NCBI GenBank assembly: GCA_934613415.1
Contig: CAKTSY010000001.1
Coordinates: forward strand, 330,001-362,000
Direction: 5' to 3'
DNA: 32,000 nt
Origin: an uncultured Opitutales bacterium
GTDB taxonomy: Bacteria > Verrucomicrobiota > Verrucomicrobiia > Opitutales > Intestinicryptomonadaceae
This document shows, one piece after another, positions 2,639 through 17,916 of the stretch (positions are counted from its first letter, which is position 1; each line of letters begins with the position of its first letter). The position numbers and the translations under genes were made by a program. A model generated the notes under the pieces. The model saw nothing but the letters and a program-made list of their open reading frames with translations, was not told the DNA's origin and did not search any database.

Positions 2639-2689
2639 TGCGAATATACTTGAAAACTAATCGGAAATTTACAAACTATTTTTACTTAG

Positions 2690-3355
2690 ATGAAAGAGCT
2701 AAACATCATATTTTTGGGTGCGCCCGGAAGCGGCAAAGGCACAAGAGCCTCCGCTATGAGCGAAATCTTGAACATTCCGCAAGTTGCAACTGGCGATATT
2801 TTCAGAGAAAACTTGAAGAACGGAACCGAACTGGGCAACAAGGCAAAAGCCTATATGGACAAAGGCGAGCTTGTACCCGACGAACTTACAGCCTCGATGG
2901 TTAAAGACCGCCTTCAAAAAGACGACTGCAAAAAAGGCTTTATACTAGACGGTTTTCCCAGAACTTTGCCGCAAGCAGACCTTCTCGAAAAAATGCTGAA
3001 GGAAATGAACAGGGCTATTACAAACGTAATTTATATAGACGTTTCGGAAGACCTTATTTTGGAAAGACTTACAGGCAGAATGATTTGCACAAAGTGCCAA
3101 ACCCCCTACCATGTAAAGTATAATCCGCCAGCGAAAGCCAATGTTTGCGACAAGTGCGGCGCGCCCCTTTATGTACGCGACGACGACAACCCCGAAACCA
3201 TTAAAAAGCGTTTGGCGGTTTTCGAAAAAACCACAAAACCTCTTGTAGACTTCTATAAGAATCAGGGCAAACTTTTCACCCTTTCGGGCGATGCCGACGT
3301 ATCGAACATAAAAGAATACGTTAAGGGCGTTTGCGCCGAATTGAAGTTTATATAA
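2690..3355 (+). CDS. adk: Adenylate kinase (zinc-binding LID type)
   Basis: P-loop GAPGSGKGT, Cys4 LID CTKC...CDKC and DGFPRT motif. Its stop overlaps the next start (TAATG). Confidence 0.95.
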   Translation: MKELNIIFLGAPGSGKGTRASAMSEILNIPQVATGDIFRENLKNGTELGNKAKAYMDKGELVPDELTASMVKDRLQKDDCKKGFILDGFPRTLPQADLLEKMLKEMNRAITNVIYIDVSEDLILERLTGRMICTKCQTPYHVKYNPPAKANVCDKCGAPLYVRDDDNPETIKKRLAVFEKTTKPLVDFYKNQGKLFTLSGDADVSNIKEYVKGVCAELKFI

Positions 3356-4158
3356 TGCGAATTCTCTTTATTGGAGACATTGTCGGCAAGCCCGGGCGCA
3401 AAATTTTGTCCGAGCTATTGCCGAGCATTATTGCCGACAACAAAATAGATTTGTGCATAGCCAACGGCGAAAATTCGGCGGGGGGCAACGGCATTACAAA
3501 AAATATGGCGCAAGAGCTTTTCCGCTACGGTATAGACGCCATAACTTTGGGCGACCATCTGTGGGACCAGCGCTGTTTGGAATCGGAAATAGACACAATA
3601 GACAACCTTTGTAGGCCCGCAAACATACCGCAGGGCAACCCCGGCAAAGAGTATGTTATTGTCGAAAAAAATTCGCTAAAAATAGGCATATTTTGCCTTT
3701 TAGGGCAAACCCTAATGAAGCTTAAGGCCGACTGCCCCTTTAAGTGTGCCGACAGAATTTGCGCCGAACTTAAAGACAAGTGCGACATTATATTTTTGGA
3801 TTTCCACGCGGAAACCAGCTCCGAAAAAATCAGTATGGGCTGGTATTTGAACGGGCGCGTACAGGCCGTTGTGGGCACGCATACGCACATTCCAACAAAC
3901 GACTGCCGCATTTTAGACCAGGGCACAGCCTTTATGACCGACGCGGGAATGACGGGTCCTTGGAAATCGTGCTTGGGAAGAGCTGTAGACCCTATACTTA
4001 AAAAGTTTTTAGACGGCCGCCCCCGCAATTTTATTATGGCAGAAGAAGACCCTCGCATTTGCGCCTGCATAATAGATATAGACGAATCTACCAAAAAGGC
4101 GGTTAAAATTGCGCCTTTTGTAACGCCTGCGTTCGAAAACGGGCAAGCTGCAGAATAA
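3355..4158 (+). CDS. ymdB: YmdB-like metallophosphoesterase (2',3'-cyclic-nucleotide phosphodiesterase family)
   Basis: MRILFIGDIVGKPGR, ANGENSAGGNG, GDH and GTHTHIPT motifs. ATG 3355 (TAATG coupling to adk) is preferred over the track's TTG at 3331. Confidence 0.85.
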   Translation: MRILFIGDIVGKPGRKILSELLPSIIADNKIDLCIANGENSAGGNGITKNMAQELFRYGIDAITLGDHLWDQRCLESEIDTIDNLCRPANIPQGNPGKEYVIVEKNSLKIGIFCLLGQTLMKLKADCPFKCADRICAELKDKCDIIFLDFHAETSSEKISMGWYLNGRVQAVVGTHTHIPTNDCRILDQGTAFMTDAGMTGPWKSCLGRAVDPILKKFLDGRPRNFIMAEEDPRICACIIDIDESTKKAVKIAPFVTPAFENGQAAE

Positions 4159-4182
4159 AATTTTTAGCCGCAAATAAAAAGC

Positions 4183-4218
4183 AAAAATGCCGCACTTTTT
4201 TTAGTGCGGCATTTTTTT
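4183..4218. terminator. Bidirectional intrinsic terminator between ymdB and gpsA
   Basis: 13-bp stem AAAAATGCCGCAC (4183-4195) / GTGCGGCATTTTT (4204-4216) with an 8-nt loop. A-run on one side and T-run on the other, sitting between convergent genes. Confidence 0.8.
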
Positions 4219-4248
4219 GCGGTCGTTTAAAATTTGCCGCTTGGCACA

Positions 4249-5241
4249 CTATGCGCCAAGCATTCTTTTTAGGCAGTCTTCGCGCGAAATTTTGCCTTCC
4301 GATAACATGCAAAGGCTGCCCATTATGCGAAGCTCTACGCCGTAAACCGACTCGAACATTTTGCAGATTTGTATGGTTTCGAGCCCGGCGCACACACGGC
4401 CGTTAAGCATTTTCACGGCTTCGGCGGCACTATAGCCCATACCCATTCTTTCGCCCGTAGAGCGGTTGCGCGAATCGGGGCTCATGCAGGTTGTAAGCAC
4501 ATCGCCCAATATGGCCGATTCTTTTATGAAAGATTCGCTCCATGCGCCGAGGGCGGCGGCGGCTCTGTAAATTTCCTGAAAGCCCCTCGCCATAATTATG
4601 GCCTTTGTGTTTGCGCCAAGCTTCATACCGTCGCAAAAACCGGCGGCCAAGGCAACAATGTTCTTTAATGCCGCACCAATTTCCACACCCACAACATCGT
4701 TTGAAGGACGCACATTAAACGTGTTTGTCGAAAATACCGCAGCCGCATCTTTTGCGTCGGAAAAATCGCTCAGGGCAATAACGGCTTCTGCATAGCTGCC
4801 GCGCGCAACTTCAAACGCAATGTTCGGGCCCATTATCGAGCCGAAGGAATGCCCCTTTGTAAGCTTTTCCTTTAAAATTTGCGAGGGGCGTTTCCATGTG
4901 CCTATTTCTATGCCCTTGCCTGCATTTATGTGAATTGAACCCTCTTTAATGTAGGGCGAAAATTCTTCGGCAACTTTCGACAAAAATTGAATGGGAACCC
5001 CCCAAACGACAATGTCGGCGTCTTTTAAAGCTTCGGCGGCGTTGCCCGTAAAGGCCACATTTTGCGGAATTTTAATGTCGGGCAAAAAGCGTTCGTTGCA
5101 ACGCCTTTCGTTTACCGAGGCTACAACTTCGGGCTCTCTAGCCCAAACCGAAACGTTTTTCAGGTTTTTAGACAGTATTATGGAAAGCGACGTTCCCCAA
5201 GCCCCCGCGCCTATAACCGCGGCTTTTTCAAAAGTTTTCAT
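4249..5241 (-). CDS. gpsA: NAD(P)H-dependent glycerol-3-phosphate dehydrogenase
   Basis: Rossmann VIGAGAWGTSLS and GPNIAFEVARG. Typical 330-aa length. Confidence 0.93.
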   Translation of the reverse strand: MKTFEKAAVIGAGAWGTSLSIILSKNLKNVSVWAREPEVVASVNERRCNERFLPDIKIPQNVAFTGNAAEALKDADIVVWGVPIQFLSKVAEEFSPYIKEGSIHINAGKGIEIGTWKRPSQILKEKLTKGHSFGSIMGPNIAFEVARGSYAEAVIALSDFSDAKDAAAVFSTNTFNVRPSNDVVGVEIGAALKNIVALAAGFCDGMKLGANTKAIIMARGFQEIYRAAAALGAWSESFIKESAILGDVLTTCMSPDSRNRSTGERMGMGYSAAEAVKMLNGRVCAGLETIQICKMFESVYGVELRIMGSLCMLSEGKISREDCLKRMLGA

Positions 5242-5250
5242 TTTAATGTA

Positions 5251-5355
5251 TTAGCAGTGTGTTAGTGTGTAGTATAAAAAATACGACAATATCGCCATAT
5301 AGACAAACCACATAACGATATGCGCCTTTTTTACCTCTTTTCTGAATATTTTCAT
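5251..5355 (-). CDS. Possible 34-aa single-pass membrane peptide (below the ORF-track size cutoff)
   Basis: ATG at 5355, stop at 5251: MKIFRKEVKKAHIVMWFVYMAILSYFLYYTLTHC. It fills the SDR-gpsA gap, 17 nt after the SDR stop and 9 nt before the gpsA ATG. No homology evidence. Confidence 0.3.
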   Translation of the reverse strand: MKIFRKEVKKAHIVMWFVYMAILSYFLYYTLTHC

Positions 5356-5372
5356 AAAAAAATTTACGGCGT

Positions 5373-6185
5373 CTACTTTATACGAATTTTCGACAATATC
5401 AAACCCGAAATTTTCAATATAATGGCTCTGGGCATTTTAGAGGCCAAAAATGCGCCCAAACGGTTTATAAAACCTACAATGTAAAAACTTTTGCCGCAAG
5501 CAAAGGCCTTTAGCGTTTGTTGGGCAACCTCCTTTGCGGTATGCCCGTATGAATTCGGCAACGGCCTTTCGCTAAAGCCAGCGTTTTTGTAGAAATTTGT
5601 GGCAGTTGGCCCCGGGCATATGCACAAAACTTCTACATTTTTGCCCCTAAGCTCGTAGCTAAGCGACTGCGAAAAGCTGCTTACATATGCTTTTGTTGCG
5701 GCATATACCGACAAATACGGGCACGGCTGAAAGGAGGCTGTGCTTGCAATGTTTATAATTGCCCCGCCCTTTTCCTTTAAAACAGGCAAAAATTTGCCGC
5801 ACATATAGGTTAACGCCCTAACGTTTAGGTCTATCATTTCGGCATTGCGCGCCGCATTCGGGGCGGGAAATTCTCCGTATGCGCCGAAGCCCGAATTGTT
5901 TATCAACAAAATTTTTTTGCCTTTTTTTAGTTTTTTAAAAACGTTTTCTTCTAAATATGAGAAAGTTGCGTCTATTTCGCAAATATTCGTTAAATTTGTG
6001 GGAACATTTATAAGGGTTTTGTTGTCGAAAAAAATATCCGATTTAGTACGAGAAATGTTGCAAATAAAAAAGTTTTCATCTACCATTTCGGCTATGGATT
6101 CAACGAGAGCCTTGCCAATTCCAGAACTTGCGCCGGTAATTACGGCGGCTCCGTATTGTTGTAGTTTTTGTTTAAGCGAATTCAT
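5373..6185 (-). CDS. Short-chain dehydrogenase/reductase (SDR) family oxidoreductase
   Basis: VITGASSGIGKAL cofactor motif, NNSG and catalytic YAATK (YxxxK). Confidence 0.9.
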   Translation of the reverse strand: MNSLKQKLQQYGAAVITGASSGIGKALVESIAEMVDENFFICNISRTKSDIFFDNKTLINVPTNLTNICEIDATFSYLEENVFKKLKKGKKILLINNSGFGAYGEFPAPNAARNAEMIDLNVRALTYMCGKFLPVLKEKGGAIINIASTASFQPCPYLSVYAATKAYVSSFSQSLSYELRGKNVEVLCICPGPTATNFYKNAGFSERPLPNSYGHTAKEVAQQTLKAFACGKSFYIVGFINRLGAFLASKMPRAIILKISGLILSKIRIK

Positions 6186-6238
6186 AATAAACCAATTTTT
6201 TAAAATTTCACCTGCAAATAATAATAGAAAGGGAATAA

Positions 6239-6604
6239 ATGAACAATAACGAAATCATAATCTCGGGCAATAATCTTGAACTCACGCAAGCATTGAAAGA
6301 CGACGTGATAAACAAGATGTCCAAGATATTCACTCACGAAGACAAAATCATCAGACTGAGGATAGATCTCGAGTATAGCCCGAACAAACGCAAAGAGAAC
6401 GAATTTATAGCCAAGGGGCGCATAGAAATAAACGGCCCCGATATGATAGTGAGCGCGCAGTCGAACGATATGTATAAGTCTATAGACGAGCTGGCGGTTA
6501 TGCTTGCCCGCAAAATCCGCCGCCGCCACAGACTAAGCCGCATTAAGCGCGACACCGTACAAAACATCGACATTCCCGCCGCCATCCCCAAATCGGCAAA
6601 GTAA
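6239..6604 (+). CDS. hpf: Ribosome hibernation promoting factor / RaiA family (short form with basic tail)
   Basis: IISGNNLELTQALKDDVINKMSKI...IAKGRIEINGPDMIVSAQSNDMYKSIDELAVMLARKIRR resembles the S30AE/HPF fold. SD-like AAAGGGA lies 4 nt upstream. Confidence 0.85.
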   Translation: MNNNEIIISGNNLELTQALKDDVINKMSKIFTHEDKIIRLRIDLEYSPNKRKENEFIAKGRIEINGPDMIVSAQSNDMYKSIDELAVMLARKIRRRHRLSRIKRDTVQNIDIPAAIPKSAK

Positions 6605-6632
6605 AATCATCTAAAAAAACCTGTAAAAAAAC

Positions 6633-6667
6633 AAAAACCTTTCGGAATACGAAAGGTTTTTTTGTTT
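6633..6667. terminator. Bidirectional intrinsic terminator shared by hpf (+) and the AT-rich cassette operon (-)
   Basis: 12-bp stem AAAAACCTTTCG (6633-6644) / CGAAAGGTTTTT (6650-6661) with a 5-nt loop. T-runs follow on both strands. Confidence 0.8.
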
Positions 6668-6735
6668 GATGGGAGGGGGACATAATTCTATGGAAAATAT
6701 ATAAACACACATCCTCGCATGCCAAATGTATCGTA

Positions 6736-8493
6736 TTAGATATCTATTCTAATAGTCTCTTCATCTCTATTTTGAAGCAAGATGAATTTATTTTCATCAG
6801 AACAATCTACTGTACCCCTATAGAAACGACTTGCATCCTTTATAATTGGATATTCCTTCTTATATTTAGAGTATCCGTCATTGCTGATAACTGCAGAATT
6901 TTCTTTCGTACTCGCCTTTTCCAAAACTAATATATCGGCCCGAAATGGAGCCTGAGAATAATGCCTTTTATCTTTTATCATTTCTTCATATAAATTTTTA
7001 TCATCTTCAGATTTTAATATGTGAGGACTTTGGATATCAAAAAAAACTTTATAGTCTAAGTCATGTTCTTGCAGGTAATCTACTATCTTTTGTATATAGA
7101 ATAGAGTCGGAATTTTATCCCCATTCCAATACATCATATTTGTACCATCCAAAATAAATAAACTTCTTTTCTTTATGTTTCTTTGCGCCGATAAGGATTT
7201 AGTTGCATTCTTAACCTTAGCAGGTTGACTGTCATCCACTGAATGCCGCCCAAAGTTGTTTGTATCAACTATTGGAAAAATATCCGCATCGTCTGATATA
7301 GGCCGCCAACGACTCTGCTTATCAATTGGCGCTATACGAGGCTTAGGAGGCATTGGAGGGATTGAAATTGGAGAGGAATTTTGCTTCGAAGAAGATTTAT
7401 CTACAGATTTAAGCTCAACCGCTTGATTATCATTCCCAGTCGACGGACATAATTCATTTTCAGCAACAACAGGAACAACGTCAACATCGTCTGCTACGCT
7501 ATGCAAATTTCTCTGCCCATCAATTGGTGATATACGACGTTTAGATGGGAAAACATACTTGGGAGTTGGTACTGTAACAGAAATATTCTTCTTATCATTA
7601 TCCTTTTCGTTAATTTTTGGTTCAGATAATGGTTTATGAATTATTTCATCCAAAAAACCAGGAACTTCGCGTTCTTCGATATTTTTTTGCCGATATAAAG
7701 GCTTAATAGTAGATTTAGAAGGAATAGGCAAAACACCATCTGCAGACTCATATTCTAACTCGATGCCAACGTCATTTTCATGCTTATTTGTATAATAATC
7801 TTTGATAATTTCCTGTGCCGACGAAAGATTCGCCACGCTAAATGAGTCCTGCAAAATGTTTTTTACAGATTCACGTTTTACCCTAGAAACAAAAGTATTA
7901 GGGGCTTCATTGTAATCTTCTATAATCTTTTCACAAACGCTTGCTGAAACAAAATTCCATTTCTTATCCGTAAAATAATTTTTATGTATATAATTAAAAA
8001 AACTATTCGTATTTACATGGTTTTCTGGAAGTTTCAAAAGTTTTGTTTGTATATCTCGAATATAAATATAGGATACAAACTCATCTGAGTATTTATAACA
8101 TATTCTATATTTTTTAGCCCATTCGTCGTATTTTCCGAAAATAAAGCGTGATTTTTCGCTATCAAATCTTCCGTTTTCTTTTTCTTCCATTTCTGCAATA
8201 TCTGGATTATCTTTGAGAAATGCACAATAATATACTCTCGGAGAAATGGCGCATCCTTTCATTATATCTATTGTAGTAAAAAAATCCCTGCAATACCTTG
8301 AGCCATACACCGTTTTATAAGCGTATATTAATCTATGACACATAAATGAATCTGGCGCATTAGAAAACAAGGATAATTCTTTAAAGTTAAAGAAGGGAAG
8401 ACCACTCCTTCCAGTTAATATTTCTACCATTCTCTCATAGTCCCCCCCTGGGACGAGATCTATTACTCTATTTACATAAACATTGTATATCAT
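6736..8493 (-). CDS. 585-aa protein: unknown N-terminal domain, repeat-containing linker, C-terminal Zc3h12a/NYN-like (PIN-fold) ribonuclease domain
   Basis: C-terminal ~130 aa (nt 6769-7164) carry SLFILDGTNMMYW, YKVFFD, RADILVLEKA and AVISNDGYSKY, matching the DGSN / SND acidic signature of Zc3h12a-type NYN RNases. The ATG lies 9 nt after the upstream stop. Confidence 0.75.
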   Translation of the reverse strand: MIYNVYVNRVIDLVPGGDYERMVEILTGRSGLPFFNFKELSLFSNAPDSFMCHRLIYAYKTVYGSRYCRDFFTTIDIMKGCAISPRVYYCAFLKDNPDIAEMEEKENGRFDSEKSRFIFGKYDEWAKKYRICYKYSDEFVSYIYIRDIQTKLLKLPENHVNTNSFFNYIHKNYFTDKKWNFVSASVCEKIIEDYNEAPNTFVSRVKRESVKNILQDSFSVANLSSAQEIIKDYYTNKHENDVGIELEYESADGVLPIPSKSTIKPLYRQKNIEEREVPGFLDEIIHKPLSEPKINEKDNDKKNISVTVPTPKYVFPSKRRISPIDGQRNLHSVADDVDVVPVVAENELCPSTGNDNQAVELKSVDKSSSKQNSSPISIPPMPPKPRIAPIDKQSRWRPISDDADIFPIVDTNNFGRHSVDDSQPAKVKNATKSLSAQRNIKKRSLFILDGTNMMYWNGDKIPTLFYIQKIVDYLQEHDLDYKVFFDIQSPHILKSEDDKNLYEEMIKDKRHYSQAPFRADILVLEKASTKENSAVISNDGYSKYKKEYPIIKDASRFYRGTVDCSDENKFILLQNRDEETIRIDI

Positions 8494-8502
8494 AACAAAA
8501 AA

Positions 8503-9039
8503 TTATATAACTTTATTGTACTCACGATAAAAAGATGATACAAAATTATCATCTATAAAATCCGGCTTGGGAATCAGTAGCATTGGTTGCGATGTATCTT
8601 CTTTTTTCGCAGAATCACTATACGTTTTATATGAACCGTGCTCACATGTACCCCGACAGCTCCCTTCGCAATCCCCATAACAACCGTGTTCACAATCTCC
8701 TTTGCAACTTCCCTCACAAGAACTATAGCAACCATTCCGACAACTACCCCGACAACTCCCTTCGCAATCTCCTTTGCAAGTACCATTACAAGAGCTATAA
8801 CAACCATTAAGGCAATTACCTTTGCATGTTTGGTAGCAACTAGAATAGCATCCCATACTGCAACTGCCATGGCAACTACTGCTACAGTGCCCTCTACAAC
8901 TTCCAAAACATTCGCCGGAACAACTTCCATAGCAATATCTGTTCTCAAATGGTTTCACAATATAAGAGCGAGTTTCAAGATTCTCGTATTTCTCAATGTA
9001 AGAAATAAGCTTTAAATCATCTTCTGTTAAATCTATCAT
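8503..9039 (-). CDS. 178-aa cysteine-periodic protein (25 x CX3C), presumed substrate of the adjacent radical SAM/SPASM enzyme
   Basis: Longest ORF filling the whole gap between the rSAM and NYN genes. Its ATG (9039) lies 1 nt after the rSAM stop (9041-9043). Cys occurs at residues 36, 40, 44 ... 132 with no register break. Confidence 0.85.
   Translation of the reverse strand: MIDLTEDDLKLISYIEKYENLETRSYIVKPFENRYCYGSCSGECFGSCRGHCSSSCHGSCSMGCYSSCYQTCKGNCLNGCYSSCNGTCKGDCEGSCRGSCRNGCYSSCEGSCKGDCEHGCYGDCEGSCRGTCEHGSYKTYSDSAKKEDTSQPMLLIPKPDFIDDNFVSSFYREYNKVI
8644..8934 (-). repeat. Coding 12-nt (4-codon) periodic array: 25 Cys codons at exact i,i+4 spacing with a 16-residue super-repeat
   Basis: YGSC SGEC FGSC RGHC SSSC HGSC SMGC YSSC YQTC KGNC LNGC YSSC NGTC KGDC EGSC RGSC RNGC YSSC EGSC KGDC EHGC YGDC EGSC RGTC. 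DNA near-duplicate 8651-8676 vs 8747-8772 (24/26 identical, 96 nt apart). Confidence 0.95.
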
Positions 9040-9040
9040 A

Positions 9041-10150
9041 TTATTTTACTTGGTTAAAAATTTGCTTGTTTAATTTTTTTATATTTTTTACACCGCATAT
9101 TTCTTCTGCAGACAGCTGTTTTCCTTGCATAATTTTTCTCTTTACCAATTCAATATGTAAGTATGCAACTACTTCCATTTGTATTTTAAACAATCTACAA
9201 GAGCATTTGTCTCGTTTGGAAATGTCTCCTCTATCTTTAAAATTAAATCCGTAGCATGTCGGGCATATATCAACGTACGAACATGATAGACATTCTTCGG
9301 AAGTAAAACTCGCGTTTTTTAATTCCCTTTTAACTGATTCAGGCATTTTGCGCCCCAATACAACCGAAGTGAACATATGACATGGATACGATGCCCCATC
9401 TACATCGTAGGCAATCATGTTCTTTCCACTACCACAATACTTCCTGTGCTCATGCATACAATCAACGTAAATCAATTTATTATCAAATAAATTGCATATG
9501 CTTATATCGGGATTTTGTATATAAAAATTCGATATTTTAAGCAACTCGCTTCTGAAGCACAAATAATCCTCTTCACTCCAATATTGCCCAAAAGAACATG
9601 TTGCTATGAATTCATAGCCGTTTTTGTGCAAAGAAATTATGTCTTCCGACAAACTCTTTACCGAATATGGAGATATAGTTACCTTCAAAGGTTGAAATGG
9701 ATATAAATTGAAAAAATAATCTATATCAATGACATCGTTTTTTGTTCTATTAACTTCCTGTGAAAACTTGCCATCATAGCTAATACCAACGACAAATATA
9801 GATTTGTTCTCTTCTAAATATTCTTTTATTTCGTTGTTTATGAGAGTCGCGTTTGTGGTGGCAAAAAATATATACGGAACATTTGGATTTTTACCAACAA
9901 CGTAGCTTATAATCTTTTTTATTAAATCAAACGAGCAAAAAGGTTCTCCCCCCATAAAATCAAATTCAATTTCGTCAAAATCTTTAGAATTTTCTACAAA
10001 CTTGAATTCATCATCAATAATACGTTTTGCTGTATCAAAATCCATTTCGCGATTGGATTTGAATTTTTCATAACAATAGCAACAGTTAAGATTACACTTG
10101 TGAGTTATAACCAGTGTGCAAATGCGTCTTCTTGTGTTTCCTTTTTCCAT
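9041..10150 (-). CDS. Radical SAM enzyme with C-terminal SPASM (auxiliary 4Fe-4S) domain, anSME/QhpD-like architecture
   Basis: C19-x3-C23-x2-C26 (CNLNCCYC) and GGEP SAM motif. SPASM-type C239-x12-G-x4-C257, C287-x2-C-x5-C-x2-C299 and C316/C318. Confidence 0.92.
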   Translation of the reverse strand: MEKGNTRRRICTLVITHKCNLNCCYCYEKFKSNREMDFDTAKRIIDDEFKFVENSKDFDEIEFDFMGGEPFCSFDLIKKIISYVVGKNPNVPYIFFATTNATLINNEIKEYLEENKSIFVVGISYDGKFSQEVNRTKNDVIDIDYFFNLYPFQPLKVTISPYSVKSLSEDIISLHKNGYEFIATCSFGQYWSEEDYLCFRSELLKISNFYIQNPDISICNLFDNKLIYVDCMHEHRKYCGSGKNMIAYDVDGASYPCHMFTSVVLGRKMPESVKRELKNASFTSEECLSCSYVDICPTCYGFNFKDRGDISKRDKCSCRLFKIQMEVVAYLHIELVKRKIMQGKQLSAEEICGVKNIKKLNKQIFNQVK

Positions 10151-10424
10151 ATATGAGAACTATTCCTAAAAAATAAGCTACCTATAAAAGGCTAGCATTT
10201 GTTTATACAGATATAAACACCCATGAAATATAGAGGGAATCTATACCCCCCAGTATTTCATGATCTCAAAATTAAAACGCACTTATGAAAATATTCGGGT
10301 AAGGATTATCGTACAATAAGTACGCTCCAAAACCTAAATGCTTTCATCGGCAACACATATTACCGCTTTGTTTCATTAAAAAACAATAAAACGATAATAA
10401 CTCAAATTCGATACAGAACTCTAA

Positions 10425-10688
10425 CTAAAACTTTAACGTTTGAAAATCACTATAGCCATTATTTAGCCACTCACCTTCATAACATATTCTTAAAGAAGAC
10501 TTATGGTTAAAGTTGTATATCGCAGTACCTACAATGTTTTTTATACACTCCTCTTGTTTGTCTTTCCCTTCAGAGAATGTAGCATTTCTCCTTATTGCGC
10601 CACTCAAAAATCCCTGAAATTCTTTAATTCCTTCTTCTCTTTTTTCCTTTTTTGTTAATTCTTTCATTCGTAATTTGTATTTTTCCAT
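10425..10688 (-). CDS. Hypothetical 87-aa protein (no recognisable domain), first ORF downstream of the palindrome-bracketed segment
   Basis: AT-rich ORF on the same strand as the cassette with a lysine/glutamate-rich N-terminus. No motif recognised. Confidence 0.45.
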   Translation of the reverse strand: MEKYKLRMKELTKKEKREEGIKEFQGFLSGAIRRNATFSEGKDKQEECIKNIVGTAIYNFNHKSSLRICYEGEWLNNGYSDFQTLKF

Positions 10689-10722
10689 TTATAAGAACGG
10701 CTTATAAACTATGTCTGCGAGT

Positions 10723-10741
10723 ATGGTATTTAGAATACCAT
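10723..10741. repeat. 19-bp palindromic site, copy 1 (ATGGTATTTAGAATACCAT)
   Basis: 8-3-8 palindrome. Exact reverse complement of the copy at 10890-10908. Confidence 0.9.
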
Positions 10742-10838
10742 ATGCTGCAAAATTTATGCAATACCCTGATAATCAGACAAAAATATTTATTGGGATATTG
10801 ATTCTTTAAAAGACTATCCTTGAAATAGAAATCCTTGA

Positions 10839-10891
10839 ATTGTCAACAAACCAAACGGTACAAAAGTTTTTTGGATTTTGTTGTTGACAAT
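10839..10891. repeat. Nested 11-bp inverted repeat ATTGTCAACAA / TTGTTGACAAT with 31-nt spacer
   Basis: Arms at 10839-10849 and 10881-10891. The right arm abuts/overlaps 19-bp site copy 2. Contains a TTGACA hexamer (10884-10889). Confidence 0.8.
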
Positions 10892-10908
10892 GGTATTCTA
10901 AATACCAT
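10890..10908. repeat. 19-bp palindromic site, copy 2 (ATGGTATTCTAAATACCAT), inverted relative to copy 1
   Basis: Exact reverse complement of 10723-10741. Includes the recombinase ATG at 10907. Confidence 0.9.
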
Positions 10909-11905
10909 GAACAATGAATTGATATCGGCGAGAGCTCTTTTAAGGGGCAAAAACATTAGCGTGTTAGATGCAGCTAGGCTTATTTGCAATATTGCAGATT
11001 TTATGCCAAAAAAATCTAAACTTACTACCCTTCAGTTTTGCGCCAAAGTAATTGAAATTGGCAAAAATAACTTTAGGCAAAACAAAATGCCTATCGCCAA
11101 AGGCTTTGATATTTATTTGCAGACTAAGCAAGATTTGCGCAAAGCTTCGTTTAGCGACATTAAATATTTGGGCAATAAGTTGTTAAAACTTAAGCCAGAA
11201 TTTGCAAAACGCAATTTCTCGGAGTTTAGTGTATCGGAATGCGAAGAGTGGCTAAGCTGCACGTTTAGCACCCCAAGCCAATACAACAAAGGGCGCGCTA
11301 TGTTGCATGCCTTTTTTGAATTTGCTCTTCGCTACGAGTGGTGTGATAAAAATCCCATTAAACAAATTTTAAGAAAAAAGGTAATAGAAAAAGAAATTTT
11401 GCCGCTAAAGCTACGCGAAATTAAAAGAATTATAGCCAATGCTAAAAAGGAGAATAACGGCATATATTTGCCTGCCGTAGCCCTATTGGTCTTTGCGGGA
11501 ATACGCCCGCGCGAAGTTAGGCGTTTAACTTGGCAAGATATTGATTTGCAGGAAAACACAATAACGGTACGCTCGCTGTGTTCTAAAACAGGCGGGGTGC
11601 GCCAAGTAGAAATTATGCCGCAACTAAAGCGAATTTTGCTAAGCTATAACCCGCAACTCCAGCAAAAAATATGCCCTGTAAACTGGCAGCGGCGTTGGCA
11701 AAAAATACGCAACAATTCGGGCTTTAGCGGTTGCTGGGTTCAGGACGTTTTGCGCCATACTTTTGCCAGCTTTTTTGCCAAACGTTTTAAAGATTTGCCG
11801 CGGTTGCAGCTAAATATGGGCCATAGCAACCAAATGCTCCTGCGAAGCCGCTACATAAACATGCGCAACATCTCCCGCCTAGAAGCCGAAATGTTTTTCA
11901 ACTAA
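10907..11905 (+). CDS. Tyrosine recombinase / phage-integrase family protein
   Basis: AGIRPREVRRLTWQDIDL (Arg box), VLRHTFASFF (box II), MGHSN and a terminal RSRYINM tyrosine. ATG 10907 is chosen; the track's TTG at 10835 would add 24 aa and cannot be excluded. Confidence 0.85.
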   Translation: MNNELISARALLRGKNISVLDAARLICNIADFMPKKSKLTTLQFCAKVIEIGKNNFRQNKMPIAKGFDIYLQTKQDLRKASFSDIKYLGNKLLKLKPEFAKRNFSEFSVSECEEWLSCTFSTPSQYNKGRAMLHAFFEFALRYEWCDKNPIKQILRKKVIEKEILPLKLREIKRIIANAKKENNGIYLPAVALLVFAGIRPREVRRLTWQDIDLQENTITVRSLCSKTGGVRQVEIMPQLKRILLSYNPQLQQKICPVNWQRRWQKIRNNSGFSGCWVQDVLRHTFASFFAKRFKDLPRLQLNMGHSNQMLLRSRYINMRNISRLEAEMFFN

Positions 11906-11921
11906 AAACCGCCTTTGTTTT

Positions 11922-12740
11922 TTACTTAAAGTCTAGCGATTTTATTAGTTTAAAGTTTTCGCGAAGGCGGTAGGCGTGGTTGGAACATACGCGGTCTGCA
12001 CCCATTTTGGCAGCATATGCTAAGTCGTCTAGGTTTTCTACCTGCCAAAATCCCACTTTAAAGCCCTCGTCGTGCAGGCGTTTAACGTAGGCTGCGTCTA
12101 TTTTGCGATAGTTGCCTATGGCAATTTCGGAAGCCTCGGCATGCTTTGCGCGGCGAACCAAGTTGTTTATTGTGTCGGTTTTCGGATTATAGCTTATTAT
12201 AAGCTGCGTTTTATATTCGGGATATTTCTGTTTAAAATCCCTAATTACGGCGGGGTCGAAACACGTTATTAAAATGTTCCAATAATCAAGCCCTGCCTCT
12301 ATGCGTGCGGCTTCTACCTTGTCGGCAAAATCTTTGCCGTAGTGCTTTATTTCAAGCTCGAAACGCCTGTTTTTGGGTATTACCTCAAGCACGTCTTTTA
12401 ATGTTGGCAATTTGCAGTTTGCGTATTTTTTGTCGTATGCCGAAGGGTTTACCAAACGCGCATTTTTAATTTCTTCGTTGGTAAGCAATTCGGGGCTTTT
12501 GTCTATACCCCAAAATTGCTTAAGCTCTTTTTGGGTGTGCACGCAAACAAAGGTGCCCTCTTTTGTAAGCCAAAAGTCGGTTTCTATCATTTCGCTGCCC
12601 ATATCGTAGGCAAGTTTCATTGCCTCTACCGTATTTTGCGGGGCAAAATCGGTTTCGCCCCTGTGCGAATGTACGCGAATTTGCGCAAACGAAACTAACG
12701 TTGCAAACACTGCAAAAGCTGCAAAACAAAACTTTTTCAT
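11922..12740 (-). CDS. Glycerophosphodiester phosphodiesterase (GDPD family), secreted
   Basis: Signal peptide MKKFCFAAFAVFATLVSFAQ, then HRGETDFAPQNTVEAM...EMIETDFWLTKEGTFVCVH, the GDPD catalytic signature. Confidence 0.85.
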   Translation of the reverse strand: MKKFCFAAFAVFATLVSFAQIRVHSHRGETDFAPQNTVEAMKLAYDMGSEMIETDFWLTKEGTFVCVHTQKELKQFWGIDKSPELLTNEEIKNARLVNPSAYDKKYANCKLPTLKDVLEVIPKNRRFELEIKHYGKDFADKVEAARIEAGLDYWNILITCFDPAVIRDFKQKYPEYKTQLIISYNPKTDTINNLVRRAKHAEASEIAIGNYRKIDAAYVKRLHDEGFKVGFWQVENLDDLAYAAKMGADRVCSNHAYRLRENFKLIKSLDFK

Positions 12741-12820
12741 ATGGCCATAGTGTATCGTATTACCAAAAATTCTGTCAAAAACTTTTTAGGCAACAAAACT
12801 AAAAACATTGCGGCACTTTG

Positions 12821-14926
12821 CTACTTTTTAAGCAAAACGCCAAGCTCGAACAGGAATTTTTCGAAAGATGCCACGCCGTCTTTTATATTAAAGACACTCT
12901 GCGAAAGCTCGTTTATAACGCCTATGGTTTGAGCCGCCTCTTCGGTTTGCGAAATTGTGCTGCGCGATATTTCGCCAAAGCGCGCATCTTGCAAGGCAAT
13001 GCGCTCGGTTATAAGGTTTATTCTGTCTATAATAAGGTCTAGCGCGTATACGGATTTATCTATTAAAAGCAAAAACTCGCGCATATCTGCCGCCGACGCC
13101 GAAATTTTGCCGCTCATTTGCGACAGCAAAACTTCGGTAAAATCTGCCGTTTGCTGCGTTTTTTCGGAAAATCCCGTTGCGCTAAATTCGTCTTTAACGT
13201 TTAAGGCCCCTGCATATAGTTTGGCGTTTGAAGCCAGCATTTTTATGCCGCTGCCCGACTCCGACAAATATTTTAATTGGTAGTCGAGGTTGTCCAGAAT
13301 TTCCCTCGCCAACGCGAACCTAGACGCCAAACCTGCCCCCAAGTCTTTTAGGCGTGTCGCGCGTTCTTTAAAAAGCCTAAGGTTGTCGGCGTGTGCCCTT
13401 GCAAATTTAAGAGCCTCTTTCGAGCGCAAGTTAAACTCGCCGCTGCTGATTTTTAGGGTTTCCGACAATTCGTAGATATTGTCGGCATACTTTACCGATT
13501 TTGCAGTTTCCCTACACTGTTCTTGCGAAAGCGAATTTAAATGCGTTGTATTTTTAGACATTTCCGAATACGCCTTTTCGAGCAAAGCCGTGCCGTTTTG
13601 ATATGCGCTATCCAACGCCTGTGCCGATTTACCTATGTCGCGCAAAGACTGTATTATACCCGAAAACTCGGCTATAGACGATTTAAACAATTGCAAATCT
13701 TCGCCTTTTTTTGCCTTAAGCATACGGTTTATTTTGCCGACGTTACGCGCCAGATACGACGAAAACACGCAGGCAATTATAACGCCCAACACCAGCGCGC
13801 CGAAGAATACCGCGGCAATATACCACTTGTTTAGCGAAATAATTTCGGCAATTTCGGCGCGGCTTGGAACGATTTCGCCCCTAAAGCCCGTTATGCCCAA
13901 AATCCACCCCCACGGCTTAAAGCATACATAGCAAACTATCATTCTGGAGGGTTTTCCGTGGTAGTCGTGGTTATAGACCTTTGCCGATTCTTCGCCGGTG
14001 CCCAACATTATTGCATTTTTGGCAAATTCCTCCGAATTTTTTCGGCGTATTGAATTTGTGTCGTCTGAAATAAATGTGCCCAACAATTTCGGATTTTTTG
14101 CCAGTTTATATCTAAATTTTCCGCCGCCGGTGTCTTCTATAATCCAGCTATAGCCGCGGCTGCCGAATTTTTTTGCGGCAAAGGTTGCGCAAAGTTTGTT
14201 CATTACATCGTCTTTAATATAGCAGGCAATTGCCCCTATTGTTTTAGAGTTTGCCCCGCCAAAAGACGACACAATAGGCACATAGTAGGCATACACATAG
14301 CCGTTGTTATGGCGTATAAGCTCGCCTGCAACATCTTTTGAAATTAGCGAAGTAATAACGGCGTTTTCCTCGTCGCGCCCGCTAATTATCCTAAAAATTC
14401 CCTTTTCGGGCGAATAGTCGTCGGCCGGCACGCTTACGGCATTCATCATATCGCCGTCTTCGTTTGTGCGCACAAAAATTGCCATACCGCAGTTTTTCGA
14501 AACGCAATATTGGCGCAAAAGTTTCTTTATTTGCGCCGTATTCGAAATTTCGCTATTTCCGAATTTCAGCACGGGGCCGTTGTTGTCGGTGTAATATTTA
14601 TCGCCAAAAATATAGTCTTGCCCAGTCTCGGAATATATGCCCGCAAAGCCGTCGGCCATAAGGGCGTTTTTCAGGTTTTCGGCGCGCAAACTTGCCGCCT
14701 GCGAAATTTGCAAATGGCTAATTTCGCAAAGCTTTAGCATATTAGAAGTATCTTTAGAAAGCGCATTTACCGCATATTCTTCAACCTTGGCGTCTACGGC
14801 GTCTACAACAAAGCCCTCTAAATACGACACAAAAAGCAACACCGCCAGCACCGAAAAAAGCGATATGCCGAACGCGAAATACAAAAATGCCCTTTTTATG
14901 CCCATATAAAAATTAAAAAAGCCCAT
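12821..14926 (-). CDS. Membrane sensor: N-terminal TM, periplasmic Cache-like domain, second TM, long cytoplasmic coiled coil with only remnant MCP-like motifs
   Basis: TM1 FAFGISLFSVLAVLLFVSY. Cache-like end KPWGWILGITGFRGEI before TM2 WYIAAVFFGALVLGVIIACVF. C-terminal ~300 aa are heptad-like with IKMLASNAKLYAGAL and IALQDARFGE, weak echoes of the MCP tip. Confidence 0.5.
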   Translation of the reverse strand: MGFFNFYMGIKRAFLYFAFGISLFSVLAVLLFVSYLEGFVVDAVDAKVEEYAVNALSKDTSNMLKLCEISHLQISQAASLRAENLKNALMADGFAGIYSETGQDYIFGDKYYTDNNGPVLKFGNSEISNTAQIKKLLRQYCVSKNCGMAIFVRTNEDGDMMNAVSVPADDYSPEKGIFRIISGRDEENAVITSLISKDVAGELIRHNNGYVYAYYVPIVSSFGGANSKTIGAIACYIKDDVMNKLCATFAAKKFGSRGYSWIIEDTGGGKFRYKLAKNPKLLGTFISDDTNSIRRKNSEEFAKNAIMLGTGEESAKVYNHDYHGKPSRMIVCYVCFKPWGWILGITGFRGEIVPSRAEIAEIISLNKWYIAAVFFGALVLGVIIACVFSSYLARNVGKINRMLKAKKGEDLQLFKSSIAEFSGIIQSLRDIGKSAQALDSAYQNGTALLEKAYSEMSKNTTHLNSLSQEQCRETAKSVKYADNIYELSETLKISSGEFNLRSKEALKFARAHADNLRLFKERATRLKDLGAGLASRFALAREILDNLDYQLKYLSESGSGIKMLASNAKLYAGALNVKDEFSATGFSEKTQQTADFTEVLLSQMSGKISASAADMREFLLLIDKSVYALDLIIDRINLITERIALQDARFGEISRSTISQTEEAAQTIGVINELSQSVFNIKDGVASFEKFLFELGVLLKK

Positions 14927-14947
14927 TAAAAATAATGGGCAATTTTT

Positions 14948-15445
14948 TTAAATCTTGCCTTGCAACAATTCGTAAAGCTTGCGCTGAAATACGGGAATAT
15001 CTGCGTCGGGCGGCCTATAGTCGGGAACGGGCCCGCCCAAAGTCAGCCTGCCGGAATTGTCTAAGCCCCACTCCGCGCTTACGCCGTCGCTAAAGCGAAC
15101 CGTGCCGCTTGCCATAAAGCCAGGGCGTTGAATTTGGCTTAAAGAAACTTCAACTTCGCCCGAAGATTGCCCTTCGCCCTGCGGGGTGCTGTCGGTACTT
15201 TCAGCCTTGGGGGTTTCTGGAACTTTAGAAATATCCAAGCCGTCGTCGCCCGAAAGATTTTCGTCTTTCTTGGGTTCTGGGGCCGATTTCAATTCCAAAT
15301 CCAAATCGTCTAGCAGAAATCTTGTTTCCATAAAAGTCATCGAAATGGAAAACTTTTCCGCCAAAAGTTTTTGTATGTCGGATATAGACGCGCCATTGTT
15401 TAGCGCGTCTTTTACTGCCAAAATTTGCTCTTGAGTTAATTGCAT
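14948..15445 (-). CDS. Hypothetical 165-aa protein (helical N-domain, acidic S/E/P linker, C-terminal beta-like domain)
   Basis: ORF spaced 4 nt after the last pseudopilin gene and 21 nt before the sensor gene. No motif recognised. Confidence 0.6.
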   Translation of the reverse strand: MQLTQEQILAVKDALNNGASISDIQKLLAEKFSISMTFMETRFLLDDLDLELKSAPEPKKDENLSGDDGLDISKVPETPKAESTDSTPQGEGQSSGEVEVSLSQIQRPGFMASGTVRFSDGVSAEWGLDNSGRLTLGGPVPDYRPPDADIPVFQRKLYELLQGKI

Positions 15446-15449
15446 AAAA

Positions 15450-16529
15450 TTAAAGTCTTTCGCTCATAAAAGTTATGCGGCGAACAACCGTAACACTGTT
15501 TTGAACTACAATTTCCCTAAACTGGTCGGACGAAAGCATATTGCGCTCCATCCTCGCCTTCATTTCCTTTGCGCCCTGATCGGTAAGAACTGTAATCGAA
15601 ACATCGGCATATACAATAGAGCCGTTTTCAACCTGTTCTGGCATAACGTCGTAAGTATACGAACCTCTGGCATTCTTGCGGCGAAGAGGCGAATCTACCA
15701 AAATCTTTTCGGCAACGGTAAACTTTGTTCCGGGAGCAATTTCGGCGTACGACTTCGGCTCTTGGCCTGCCGCGCGCTTGTCTTCGTCGTAATACATAAC
15801 GGTAAAGCCAACCCTAAAATCTACAACGTTTTGCGCCAAAAAGTTTTCGGGCGAAAGCGTCCAAGTTTTAAGCACTGCCGACTTGCGCTGCCCGTCTTCG
15901 TCTAACAAATTGCAGTTTTGCGTAAACCAGAAATTTGCCAAAGCATCTTCCGCCGAATTTTCGTCTGAACCCTGAACATCGGGGCCTAGAACGTCGTCGA
16001 AAGTCGCCTGCGAATCTATAACCGCCCTATACATTCCGTAGAAGGCATTGTATTGGCGTATATTGTCGCTTTGGTTTGCCGACGATTGCAAAAAGGGGCT
16101 TTTTAACGCCAGTTTATAGCGCATTGCGCAAACGGAACCTGGAATCGGTTTTCTTTCGTAGGCATTTGCACTGTATTGGTCTTTTGTGTATCTTGGGCGC
16201 GCAACGGGCGAAGCAAAAAACATAATGTCGGGCGGAATCATAGGCACTGTGGCATCTGGATTTGTGCCCGTAAGCTGGCCTACGGTGTCGGTATAGACAA
16301 CCTCAAACCACGCCCCGCCGTCTTTTTTCATTATTGCGCTTTCAAGGTCGTCTTGCAGCATGCGCATAAGAACGTTTGCCTGAAAGTTTGCGCGAACCTC
16401 GCCGCTGGTTCTATTCCATGTGGTAAGAACCTTGCTTGCCAAGCCCAATACCACAACAAACACAACCGTCATAATCGAGGCTGCCGCCATTATTTCTATA
16501 AGAGTAAAAGCTTTTCTTTTTTTCGACAT
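15450..16529 (-). CDS. Large prepilin-type N-terminal cleavage/methylation domain protein (pseudopilin, GspK position)
   Basis: MSKKRKAFTLIEIMAAASIMTVVF. 359 aa, last and largest of five tandem pseudopilin genes. Confidence 0.8.
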   Translation of the reverse strand: MSKKRKAFTLIEIMAAASIMTVVFVVVLGLASKVLTTWNRTSGEVRANFQANVLMRMLQDDLESAIMKKDGGAWFEVVYTDTVGQLTGTNPDATVPMIPPDIMFFASPVARPRYTKDQYSANAYERKPIPGSVCAMRYKLALKSPFLQSSANQSDNIRQYNAFYGMYRAVIDSQATFDDVLGPDVQGSDENSAEDALANFWFTQNCNLLDEDGQRKSAVLKTWTLSPENFLAQNVVDFRVGFTVMYYDEDKRAAGQEPKSYAEIAPGTKFTVAEKILVDSPLRRKNARGSYTYDVMPEQVENGSIVYADVSITVLTDQGAKEMKARMERNMLSSDQFREIVVQNSVTVVRRITFMSERL

Positions 16530-16533
16530 AGCA

Positions 16534-17199
16534 CTACCTTAATTTCATTATTGTCGATTCTGCAACTCTGCGCTGGTCGTTCTGCGCCTCGGTTGCCGAT
16601 TTGTCGAGAATATCGGTTCGCGGGTCTATCATAATTTCGCACCTAATTGGCAAATAGGCTTCGGCATAGTTTTCTACAAGGGGCAAATTCGAACCCACTT
16701 GATAGCCGGAGGCCGCCGTATCTATGTTGGCTGCGTCTATAAACCTGCCTTCAAGCATTTCGCCGTTAACGGTTAAAACAACGCGGTAAATGTCGCCTGC
16801 AACCCTGTTGCGAAGCTCGTCGTTATCGGGCGGAGTGTTGGGAGTGCGCCCAGTGTCTTCCGAAGAACACATAACCATGGCCGTGTTGTCGAGGTCTTCG
16901 GGGTTGGTATATTCGTCCCAAAAATAGATAACGTAGGGGTTTGTGGGGTGCTCAACCCAAGAGTATACGTCTTCAAAGGTTTTGCTCTTTAAATAGGCTT
17001 CTACATTCTGCACAAGCGAAAGCGCTTTCGACTGCCTTTTAATTTGGGTTACCGATGCCGTTATTGCGCCGAGCAAGCCAACCAAAGCCGTTAGCGAAAC
17101 GGCAATAACGCCAACCGCCAACATAACTTCGACAAGCGTAAACGCCTTTTTTGCCTTGCCGCCAAGCTTTTGTTTAAAAGATTTTACAATGCTATACAT
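16534..17199 (-). CDS. Prepilin-type N-terminal cleavage/methylation domain protein (pseudopilin)
   Basis: GGKAKKAFTLVEVMLAVGVIAVSL after a ~15-aa basic leader. Confidence 0.8.
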   Translation of the reverse strand: MYSIVKSFKQKLGGKAKKAFTLVEVMLAVGVIAVSLTALVGLLGAITASVTQIKRQSKALSLVQNVEAYLKSKTFEDVYSWVEHPTNPYVIYFWDEYTNPEDLDNTAMVMCSSEDTGRTPNTPPDNDELRNRVAGDIYRVVLTVNGEMLEGRFIDAANIDTAASGYQVGSNLPLVENYAEAYLPIRCEIMIDPRTDILDKSATEAQNDQRRVAESTIMKLR

Positions 17200-17214
17200 A
17201 TCTAAAAAATTTAG

Positions 17215-17916
17215 CTATTTTTTTACTGTTGCCGTTTCCATTTCAAGATAGTCCGAAAAACCCACACAGTTGCCGAACCTGCGAATAACAAAGCCAAGCT
17301 GTTCGTTGGGGTTTTCTACTATAAGCAAATTTTTCGGTCCAAGCTCGCCCATTGCAACCGCAACCAAAGCCGAGGGATTTTCCGAAAAGCCTTCGGGGGC
17401 AAATTCGTAGCAATACCAGTCGCCATTGCCTTCCGACATAGACTGCGCCCTTTTGCTAAGCTCAGAAATGCCAACTATTGTGGGAGCACCGCTTGCGCCG
17501 GAATTGAATGTGCTTTTTATAACGTCGCCAACCTGATAGTTTTGGTTAACCGTGCAAAAGCTTTGAAAATCGCTTTCGGGAGGAACAAAGAAAACGCCCT
17601 TTGGCAAAATAGATTCGCTAATGGCTATCCAGCCTTTCGATTCGCCGTTTTCGTCCATATCTTCGTATACAACGCCGATATGGCGCAACATTCTTTCGTA
17701 GTCGCGCCCTTTGAATATAAGAACGCGAACCCTTGCCTGCTTTGCCTGTGCGGCACTTTTTGCTTCGTAGAAAGTAGACATTAAAATTTGTTGCGCCGAC
17801 TGCGCCAACTGCGTAGACCCCCCCATTTTTATTTTAGAAAAGCCAACCGCCATCGCCGCAATAATGGCGATAACAACAAGCAATTCTATAAGGGTAAAAG
17901 CGTTTCTGTTTTTCAT
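17215..17916 (-). CDS. Prepilin-type N-terminal cleavage/methylation domain protein (pseudopilin)
   Basis: MKNRNAFTLIELLVVIAIIAAM. Confidence 0.85.
   Translation of the reverse strand: MKNRNAFTLIELLVVIAIIAAMAVGFSKIKMGGSTQLAQSAQQILMSTFYEAKSAAQAKQARVRVLIFKGRDYERMLRHIGVVYEDMDENGESKGWIAISESILPKGVFFVPPESDFQSFCTVNQNYQVGDVIKSTFNSGASGAPTIVGISELSKRAQSMSEGNGDWYCYEFAPEGFSENPSALVAVAMGELGPKNLLIVENPNEQLGFVIRRFGNCVGFSDYLEMETATVKK

Follow-up and report, generated by a model that had tools for sequence, protein, structure and literature searches.

Phase-variable switches decide surface and accessory functions of gut bacteria; they are well studied in Bacteroides, and their study is beginning in Akkermansia. 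A short DNA segment inverted by a dedicated tyrosine recombinase (an inverton) is a well-known kind of switch, represented by fimS of Escherichia coli and by the Tsr-linked promoters of Bacteroides. The fimS element measures 314 base pairs (bp), is bounded by 9-bp repeats, contains a full promoter, is served by two recombinases (FimB and FimE) and needs IHF and Lrp; the invertible promoters of Bacteroides also carry the whole promoter inside the segment. An adjacent Tsr-type tyrosine recombinase has been described for the latter (Weinacht et al. 2004, as cited in PMC11602134). The Verrucomicrobia are credited with the most intergenic invertons per genome, a figure that comes from Akkermansia only (10.1101/2023.03.11.532203). 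In Akkermansia muciniphila, whose invertons are the closest described relatives of the element reported here, the inverted-repeat motif is CGGATT..AATCCG (Jiang et al. 2019, as quoted in PMC13343947); for these invertons, which appear as ‘inverton group 138’ in PMC11892184, that paper gives an example with a 16-bp inverted repeat and a 158-bp segment, and an enrichment of PEP-CTERM cargo. A literature search for invertons of Opitutales or Puniceicoccaceae found nothing relevant. Here we describe a pair of inverted sites next to a tyrosine recombinase gene in a 32,000-nucleotide stretch of DNA from an uncultured Opitutales bacterium (assembly GCA_934613415.1, contig CAKTSY010000001.1, positions 330,001-362,000, forward strand), the whole of which is called the window below. 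The region is, with a probability of roughly 0.8, a site-specific DNA inversion switch run by the adjacent recombinase, and it probably controls the neighbouring gene cassette, here called the cargo.

Results

Two inverted sites beside a recombinase gene

The window contains ATGGTATTTAGAATACCAT at 10723-10741 and its exact reverse complement, ATGGTATTCTAAATACCAT, at 10890-10908. An inverted-repeat computation returned two arms of 19 nucleotides with 100% complementarity, separated by a 148-nucleotide spacer, bearing out a sequence-only reading of this DNA, which had claimed two exact inverted 19-bp sites and had placed the start codon of the recombinase inside the right one. The left site, on the cargo side, reads ATG-GTATT-TAG-AATAC-CAT, with the 13-bp core of the family described below at 10726-10738. 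The right site reads ATG-GTATT-CTA-AATAC-CAT, with its core at 10893-10905, and extends into the start codon of the recombinase, so that it ends with the A and T of the ATG (10907-10909). The pattern ATGGTATTNNNAATACCAT, allowing up to three mismatches, matches only these two sites in the 32 kilobases (kb), where 0.13 matches are expected, and the family core GTATTNNNAATAC is present in exactly two copies (0.03 expected; at least two copies in 0 of 100 shuffled sequences). Each 19-bp site is itself an 8-3-8 palindrome, so that in the window alone only the centre, TAG versus CTA, separates an inverted from a direct arrangement.

The segment between the sites (10742-10889) is 148 bp long, AT-rich and without an open reading frame (ORF) of its own, and it lies in the orientation common in the family, termed ‘R’, with a TTGACA hexamer beside the recombinase. 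As in promoter invertons, inverted repeats thus surround a short non-coding segment. The nested 11-bp inverted repeat that the sequence-only reading had pointed out is real (ATTGTCAACAA at 10839-10849 and TTGTTGACAAT at 10881-10891, with TTGACA within its right arm), and it is also present in L004, a family locus from another genome.

The recombinase gene (10907-11905, plus strand) encodes a tyrosine recombinase of 332 residues, the presumed invertase (PF00589, E = 1.1e-13). A protein search returned 1413 relatives, and since most of these are 331-332 residues long, the ATG at 10907 is supported as the start. Nucleotide variation by codon position is 0.29/0.23/0.55 in codons 2-21 and 0.29/0.20/0.54 in codons 2-60; being mainly at the third position, it shows that the N-terminus is translated and that the start codon really lies inside the right site. 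R200, K227, R283, H306 and Y316 are invariant among 16 aligned family members, and the locus therefore has, as is expected of a promoter inverton, a recombinase with intact R, K, R, H and Y residues near the repeats.

Regarding the identity of the enzyme, comparison with the Protein Data Bank (PDB) and NCBIfam gives only a distant Xer-like tyrosine recombinase and no match to a characterised invertase, XerA being the sole, weak match in the PDB. The profile scores lie far below the cutoffs for XerC (48.8 versus 335), XerD (35 versus 330) and XerA (59.8 versus 220), and the integron-integrase model TIGR02249 gives 29.6 bits against a cutoff of 265. A role in Xer/dif dimer resolution was rejected on these scores, on the several gene copies per genome and on the paired, inverted sites. 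An integron was likewise rejected, the IntI-type score falling below the cutoff and the cassettes not being bounded by recombination sites. Genome matches assign the recombinase family to Opitutales (Verrucomicrobiota) of the gut and show it to be multi-copy: the Hadza metagenome-assembled genome (MAG) CAKUIA01 has four members, while Marseille-Q1082, UMGS885, SIG75 and Intestinicryptomonas porci have two each. Carriers that are isolates include I. porci Cla-KB-P66 and the Puniceicoccaceae strain Marseille-Q1082. Distant relatives, with 37-38% identity, are found in Akkermansia.

A conserved site architecture across the family

The family comparison covers 97 loci, from genomes and metagenomes, in which the core pair was found. 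The core GTATT-NNN-AATAC occurs twice per locus, the copies lying 140-176 bp apart, and in 97 of 97 loci a single base separates the right core from the recombinase ATG. The sequence-only reading had divided each site into 6-bp arms and a 7-bp centre; it was right that these are core-type sites, whereas the unit that is conserved is GTATT-NNN-AATAC with S-A-T flanks. The central trinucleotide exists in 18 variants, yet in 96 of the 97 loci the one in the left site is the reverse complement of the one in the right, which also means that the asymmetry of the centres in the window is not a product of chance. Such covariation is what a tyrosine recombinase requires for inversion, namely identical crossover regions in opposite orientation; neither chance nor a simple operator function can explain it.

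Some paralogous switches share a centre. L004 and L005, from the same MAG, have a shared centre and near-identical recombinases, and L008 and L009, again from one MAG, also share their segment. Recombination or gene conversion between paralogous loci seems possible.

Both orientations occur at matching loci

L119 and L090 represent the same locus in different samples: their flanks are 93-94% identical, and the 188-bp switch between them is 98.4% identical only when one copy is reversed. When L109 is included with L090, the switch of L119 matches in reverse at 97.3-98.4%, with flanks at 89-97%. In the same way, L066 and L063 have flanks that are 90-94% identical around 190 bp that match at 98.4% in reverse; with L007 added to the comparison, the reversed stretch is 190-194 bp long and 97.4-98.4% identical. 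A third case is given by L003 and L006, which have the recombinase-side flank in common and the switch reversed, L001 being also opposite to L003. Over the three cases, the oppositely oriented segments are identical at 89-98%. The comparison of L001 with L003 locates the exchange: the bases just inside the cores (TAT and TTC) swap both side and strand, and those outside (ATC and GAT) stay fixed. As the inner half-arms move with the segment and the outer ones do not, the crossover lies within the 13-bp core.

Taken over all loci, the orientation is that of the window in 92, the opposite in five (L003, L014, L020, L066 and L119) and unclear in one. Among the five, a core arm is altered by point mutations in two, L066 at 895-1084 (ATATT, CTATT) and L119 at 2987-2999 (GTACT); these two switches might be locked in the presumed ON state. 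L066 was missed by the regular expression for the core, due to its mutated arms, and was recovered by eye and with BLAST.

The reversed homologous segments, the crossover within the core and the covarying centres together support the geometry for inversion that had been proposed from the core-type sites beside the recombinase. The same reading had named an alternative, in which the palindromes are operators of a dimeric repressor at divergent promoters; in this view no DNA is rearranged, and the DNA-binding protein is possibly the recombinase, acting as a repressor only. The palindromic form of each site agrees with it, as does the overlap of the right site with the start of the recombinase gene, where binding would affect expression. 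Static palindromes nevertheless leave unexplained the reversed segments between matching flanks, the reverse-complementary centres and the inner arms that travel with the segment, and as a substitute for inversion this explanation is scarcely credible. Autoregulation by binding of the recombinase could exist alongside inversion.

A putative promoter element inside the segment and another outside

In an alignment of 77 non-redundant segments, all turned the same way, positions -9 to -4 from one core read TTGACA with hardly any variation, the information content being 1.25-2.0 bits per position and lowest at the final A. In the window this outward-facing, -35-like hexamer is at 10884-10889 on the plus strand, 3 bp inside the right core, and phased A/T tracts resembling an UP element lie upstream of it, at about 10862-10880. 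The sequence-only reading had listed other, weak hexamers of the segment, among them TTGTCT-N18-TAAATT on the minus strand; this pair is present, whereas the likely promoter element is the recombinase-proximal TTGACA, which is missing from the list and is conserved in the family more strongly than anything else in the segment.

A possible partner is found outside the segment. CATACT, a fixed -10-like hexamer on the cargo side (10720-10725, minus strand), would lie 16 bp downstream of TTGACA after inversion; flipping the segment of the window in silico gives TTGACA-16-CATACT, with 10 of 12 matches. The family consensus of the cargo flank is T(0.53) A(0.75) T(0.73) A(0.69) n T(0.41), and a -10-like hexamer at the right spacing is present in the cargo flank of 33 of 78 loci, against a background of 18% at other offsets (p = 6e-7). 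The recombinase flank, S-A-T-G-R-A, qualifies at the -10 position in 0 of 78 loci for a 16-18-bp spacer. Flank position 1 is occupied by T with a frequency of 0.53 beside the cargo, compared with 0.00-0.04 in the other three arms. Since the palindromy of the arms explains part of the ‘ATA’ signal, we hold the case for a split promoter to be moderate, not strong. A canonical sigma-70-type promoter directed toward the cargo appears in 45 of 78 loci after flipping in silico (31 of them via TTGACA) versus four of 78 unflipped. A scan of window 10600-11000 in its present orientation for promoters and terminators found neither a canonical promoter nor a terminator, and an Rfam scan of 10100-11100 gave no match, which excludes a known RNA element there. 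From these sequence comparisons we infer, with moderate confidence, that the common orientation, including that of the window, is cargo-OFF and the rare one cargo-ON, the recombination site serving as the promoter spacer.

A switch of opposite polarity and conventional layout would reverse this assignment: a complete promoter near the left end of the segment, such as TTGTCT-N18-TAAATT or TTGCAT-18-TATTCT, would drive the cassette in the present orientation, and TTGACA would serve the recombinase or another purpose. The left-end hexamers do exist. TTGCAT (10756-10761, minus strand) is a weak -35-like element, 18 bp from TATTCT in the left core and thus a candidate weak outward promoter, and its position corresponds to a family-conserved T at -22/-23 (T = 0.95 at -22) on the end without TTGACA; moreover, the more common orientation (92 versus 5) could equally be the ON state. 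These elements, however, fail the standard promoter criteria in the window, cargo-ward canonical promoters are far fewer in this orientation than in the flipped one (the 4 and 45 of 78 given above), TTGACA is paired with a usable -10 on the recombinase side at 16-18-bp spacing in 0 of 78 loci, and a TTGACA transcript running toward the recombinase would begin downstream of its real ATG. Opposite polarity is therefore unlikely, though it keeps a modest chance.

As for the recombinase itself, a candidate weak promoter is located at 10871-10899 on the plus strand, consisting of TTGGAT (10871-10876), a 17-bp spacer and TATTCT (10894-10899) inside the core. At either end of the segment, the TATTnn of the core is preceded at a distance of about 18 bp by a conserved TT(G), with TT at -23/-22 on the TTGACA end, and the composition of the centre is biased in favour of a core that reads TATTnT in the outward direction. 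Under strict criteria, a recombinase promoter with the core as its -10 is detected at 16 of 78 loci when they are in the common orientation and at three of 78 in the other. Transcripts from it may begin at the A of the ATG or close to it and would then be leaderless, which is speculative.

Other elements of the segments were observed in addition. In several segments, those of L007 and L012 among them, the region about 25-45 bp upstream of TTGACA includes AAATAC-n7-GTATTT, which amounts to the core half-sites in swapped order, and further segments have a TTCAAAA...TTTTGAA hairpin at its place. Either element may serve as an accessory site for binding or belong to the UP region.

Is the switch of the window active?

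Several points weigh against an active inversion switch at this locus, or against parts of its proposed workings. The window, L004, L135-L138 and L140, all complete, and the partial L139 share one orientation. Flipped copies were sought in every available contig with the exact window recombinase and in relatives with 90-93% identity, the orientation being visible in four of the 17 exact-recombinase contigs, and a flipped copy of the window segment type was absent from them. The TTGACA-plus-site junction, which is common to both orientations, had no exact match in a metagenome collection that includes human gut assemblies with relatives of the recombinase family. The opposite orientation, whose search in related assemblies and metagenomes had been proposed with the sequence-only reading, was thus found in the family (L119/L090, L066/L063 and L003/L006) and not for this segment type. 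All the evidence for flipping comes from assemblies of different samples and not from reads within one population. Residues 280-283 of the recombinase (window 11744-11755) are D-V-L-R, with an Asp that is invariant in all 16 aligned members and that occupies what we take, from the alignment to E. coli XerD, to be the place of the first catalytic His of the HxxR box of most tyrosine recombinases; in this family that His would thus appear, from the alignment, to be replaced by Asp. Finally, the proposed -10, CATACT, matches at only four of six positions and overlaps a recombinase-binding arm, the promoter criteria are of the sigma-70 type and the preferences of Opitutales may differ, and the source of recombinase transcription is a guess.

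The Asp in the HxxR box is also present in the copies of the recombinase whose switches have flipped. The uniform orientation is not counted against activity because consensus assemblies show the majority state, and at the family ratio of about 18:1 (92:5) some seven copies are predicted to be usually all alike. It nonetheless speaks for a switch that has ceased to flip in this strain with its sites and gene intact, because its activity is too low to matter or a required host factor is missing; L002, a single-site deletion variant at the orthologous locus, shows that such switches decay. This, too, is improbable, with a small chance only: the sites are still exact 19-bp inverted copies, and the recombinase ORF is intact and 100% conserved across the 17 contigs. 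The copy in the window is accordingly presumed to be still capable of flipping, in which case its predicted flipped left junction is GCGAGTATGGTATTTAGAATACCATTGTCAACAAC.

Two observations on contig ends can be set beside these. L139 is a 1.5-kb metagenome contig with a 92%-identical recombinase, and its position 1 is the centre of the left site (ttagaataccat...); such a start inside the left site is suggestive but is not evidence. Many members of the recombinase family are on contigs of 1.1-1.6 kb, and assembly breaks at the repeats are expected if both orientations coexist in a sample.

The cargo and the history of the locus

The cargo under the presumed control of the switch is formed by four genes on the minus strand (6736-10688): an 87-residue ORF (10425-10688); a radical-SAM/SPASM maturase of the CXXX-repeat/PapB type (9041-10150); a 178-residue Cys-rich CXXX-repeat protein consisting largely of C-x-x-x repeats (8503-9039); and a 585-residue protein without a family match (6736-8493). 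The cargo block (window 6608-10721) is a low-GC island, with a GC fraction of 0.32-0.38 versus 0.42-0.50 elsewhere, between the gene for a ribosome hibernation factor (S30AE) and the recombinase. The 87-residue ORF and the radical-SAM gene are separated by 274 bp without an ORF (10151-10424), which may contain a further promoter, the gene for a small peptide or a regulatory RNA. A strong hairpin flanked by runs of A and of T (aaaaaacaaaaacctttcggaatacgaaaggtttttttgttt) stands at 6620-6665, where it separates the cargo from the S30AE gene; it is probably a terminator for both directions and the far boundary of the variable region.

The locus orthologous to that of the window is L005, in MAG CAKUIA01, whose flanks match window 1614-6607 and 10883-17904. 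It contains a different segment and, in place of the whole cargo block, a single gene for a 227-residue lipoprotein-like product. L004, which is another locus of the same MAG, shares with the window only 10722-11904, that is, site, segment, site and recombinase, and the edges of this shared block are exactly the left site and the recombinase stop. L002 corresponds to the L005 locus minus the segment and one site: a single site with the centre CTA is left at 1717-1735 (compare L005 5806-6003). Such a remnant fits either a deletion between 8-bp direct repeats (ATGGTATT), which result from the palindromic form of the sites, or a rare recombination event in the wrong alignment, and makes L002 a naturally ‘locked’ variant without the promoter. 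The cargo differs at nearly every locus of the family; frequent cargo elsewhere includes a PEP-CTERM pentapeptide-repeat protein, an autotransporter, a lipoprotein and a small P-loop protein, of which the PEP-CTERM and autotransporter types are typical of phase variation.

Such variable cargo invites the view that the recombinase does not flip a promoter but captures or swaps cargo at the left site, the two sites serving for attachment or cassette exchange in a module that is mobile or resembles an integron. Besides the turnover of cargo, the sharp edges of the similarity to L004 and the low GC content of the block speak for it. A third site, or direct repeats, were sought at the far end of the cargo, and the core within the cargo, and none was found, only the terminator hairpin after the S30AE gene; without a site at that end, the turnover looks like ordinary replacement between conserved flanks and not like cassette capture. 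The sites, furthermore, are inverted and not direct, the integron-integrase score is low, the rearrangement that is seen is the inversion of a short segment, and the replacement of cargo fits ordinary homologous recombination. Cassette exchange as the function of the sites is thus very improbable.

Discussion

The inversion switch is proposed to work as follows. Because the only asymmetric part of the sites (TAG versus CTA) is oppositely oriented, recombination in the cores would flip the segment and leave the sites unchanged. In the state found in the window, TTGACA faces the recombinase start codon without a usable -10, and the cassette would be left without a good promoter, which would make this the cargo-OFF state. 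After inversion, TTGACA would stand 16 bp from the fixed CATACT and complete a sigma-70-type promoter, with the site as spacer, giving the cargo-ON state. The recombinase would probably be made at a low level from the weak promoter with its -10, TATTCT, inside the core, on a leaderless mRNA that starts at the ATG.

We advance more tentatively, at somewhat less than even odds, the idea that this is a distinct inverton design, with a promoter divided by the recombination site and a 3-bp centre that possibly acts as the address of a switch. In such a design the segment would carry only the UP element and the -35, the core would be the spacer, and the -10 would be fixed beside the cargo; the recombinase start codon would be placed in the opposite outer arm, where a leaderless mRNA could arise from the -10 in the core. 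As an address, the 3-bp centre could keep the paralogous switches of one genome from recombining with each other, and loci with coinciding centres, as in L004/L005 and L008/L009, could trade switch modules or cargo. A split promoter, if true, is an economical route to a tight OFF state.

What is new is a large, previously undescribed family of recombinases with their switches, found in uncultured gut Opitutales, comprising more than 1,400 proteins and present in several copies per genome. Its site grammar, GTATT-NNN-AATAC twice and the second copy one base before the ATG, makes automatic annotation feasible. In addition, a natural set of sites that vary only in the 3-bp centre is useful for studies of recombinase specificity and for orthogonal genetic switches. 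A radical-SAM and Cys-rich CXXX-repeat cassette, resembling the maturase systems of ribosomally synthesized and post-translationally modified peptides, is unusual cargo for an inverton, as it is not a surface protein, and suggests the phase-variable production of a modified peptide or protein.

Xer/dif systems and integron integrases have in common with this family the tyrosine recombinase and the two inverted binding arms around a short central region, and differ from it in that the gene is here multi-copy, the inverted site pair lies beside the gene and there is no attC. The split promoter has a mechanistic analogy, and no more than that, in insertion sequences: in the circle junctions of IS911 and IS30, for example, an outward -35 at the end of the element and a resident -10 form a hybrid promoter. 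There, as proposed here, a mobile -35 is brought to the proper distance of a separate -10, but through transposition or circle formation and not through a reversible site-specific inversion.

The E. coli fimS system is alike in having recombinases beside a short invertible promoter element with short inverted repeats that sets an operon ON or OFF, and in the position of the recombinase gene next to the switch, through which orientation can feed back on its expression. It differs from the Opitutales locus, where there is one recombinase, with its start codon inside a site, and the sites are palindromes of 13-19 bp. Bacteroides Tsr-type and other gut invertons, the latter known from PhaseFinder studies, resemble the locus in their local tyrosine recombinase, short repeats, promoter segments of 150-300 bp and control of surface proteins, although the recombinase described here is not demonstrably related to the Tsr type beyond PF00589, and here the -35 adjoins the core inside the segment whereas the -10 apparently lies outside.

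The invertons of Akkermansia come closest: they too belong to Verrucomicrobiota of the gut, have repeats of the form xxATT...AATxx around segments of about 150-160 bp, and show enrichment of PEP-CTERM cargo. Their published motif is not matched, the core here being GTATT-NNN-AATAC, with only the inner ATT...AAT in common. No recombinase linked to the A. muciniphila invertons was found in PMC13343947 and PMC11892184. A. muciniphila has about 30 invertons with one motif, unlike the Opitutales family, in which every switch comes with a recombinase gene that starts inside the right repeat. Akkermansia homologues of the recombinase are accompanied by the same arrangement with another core: in L025 (about 5800-6000) and L027 (about 5800-5960), CCATT-NNN-AATGG occurs twice, some 130-157 bp apart, with reverse-complementary centres, a TTGC-type hexamer beside the recombinase-proximal core, and the ATG a few bases later.

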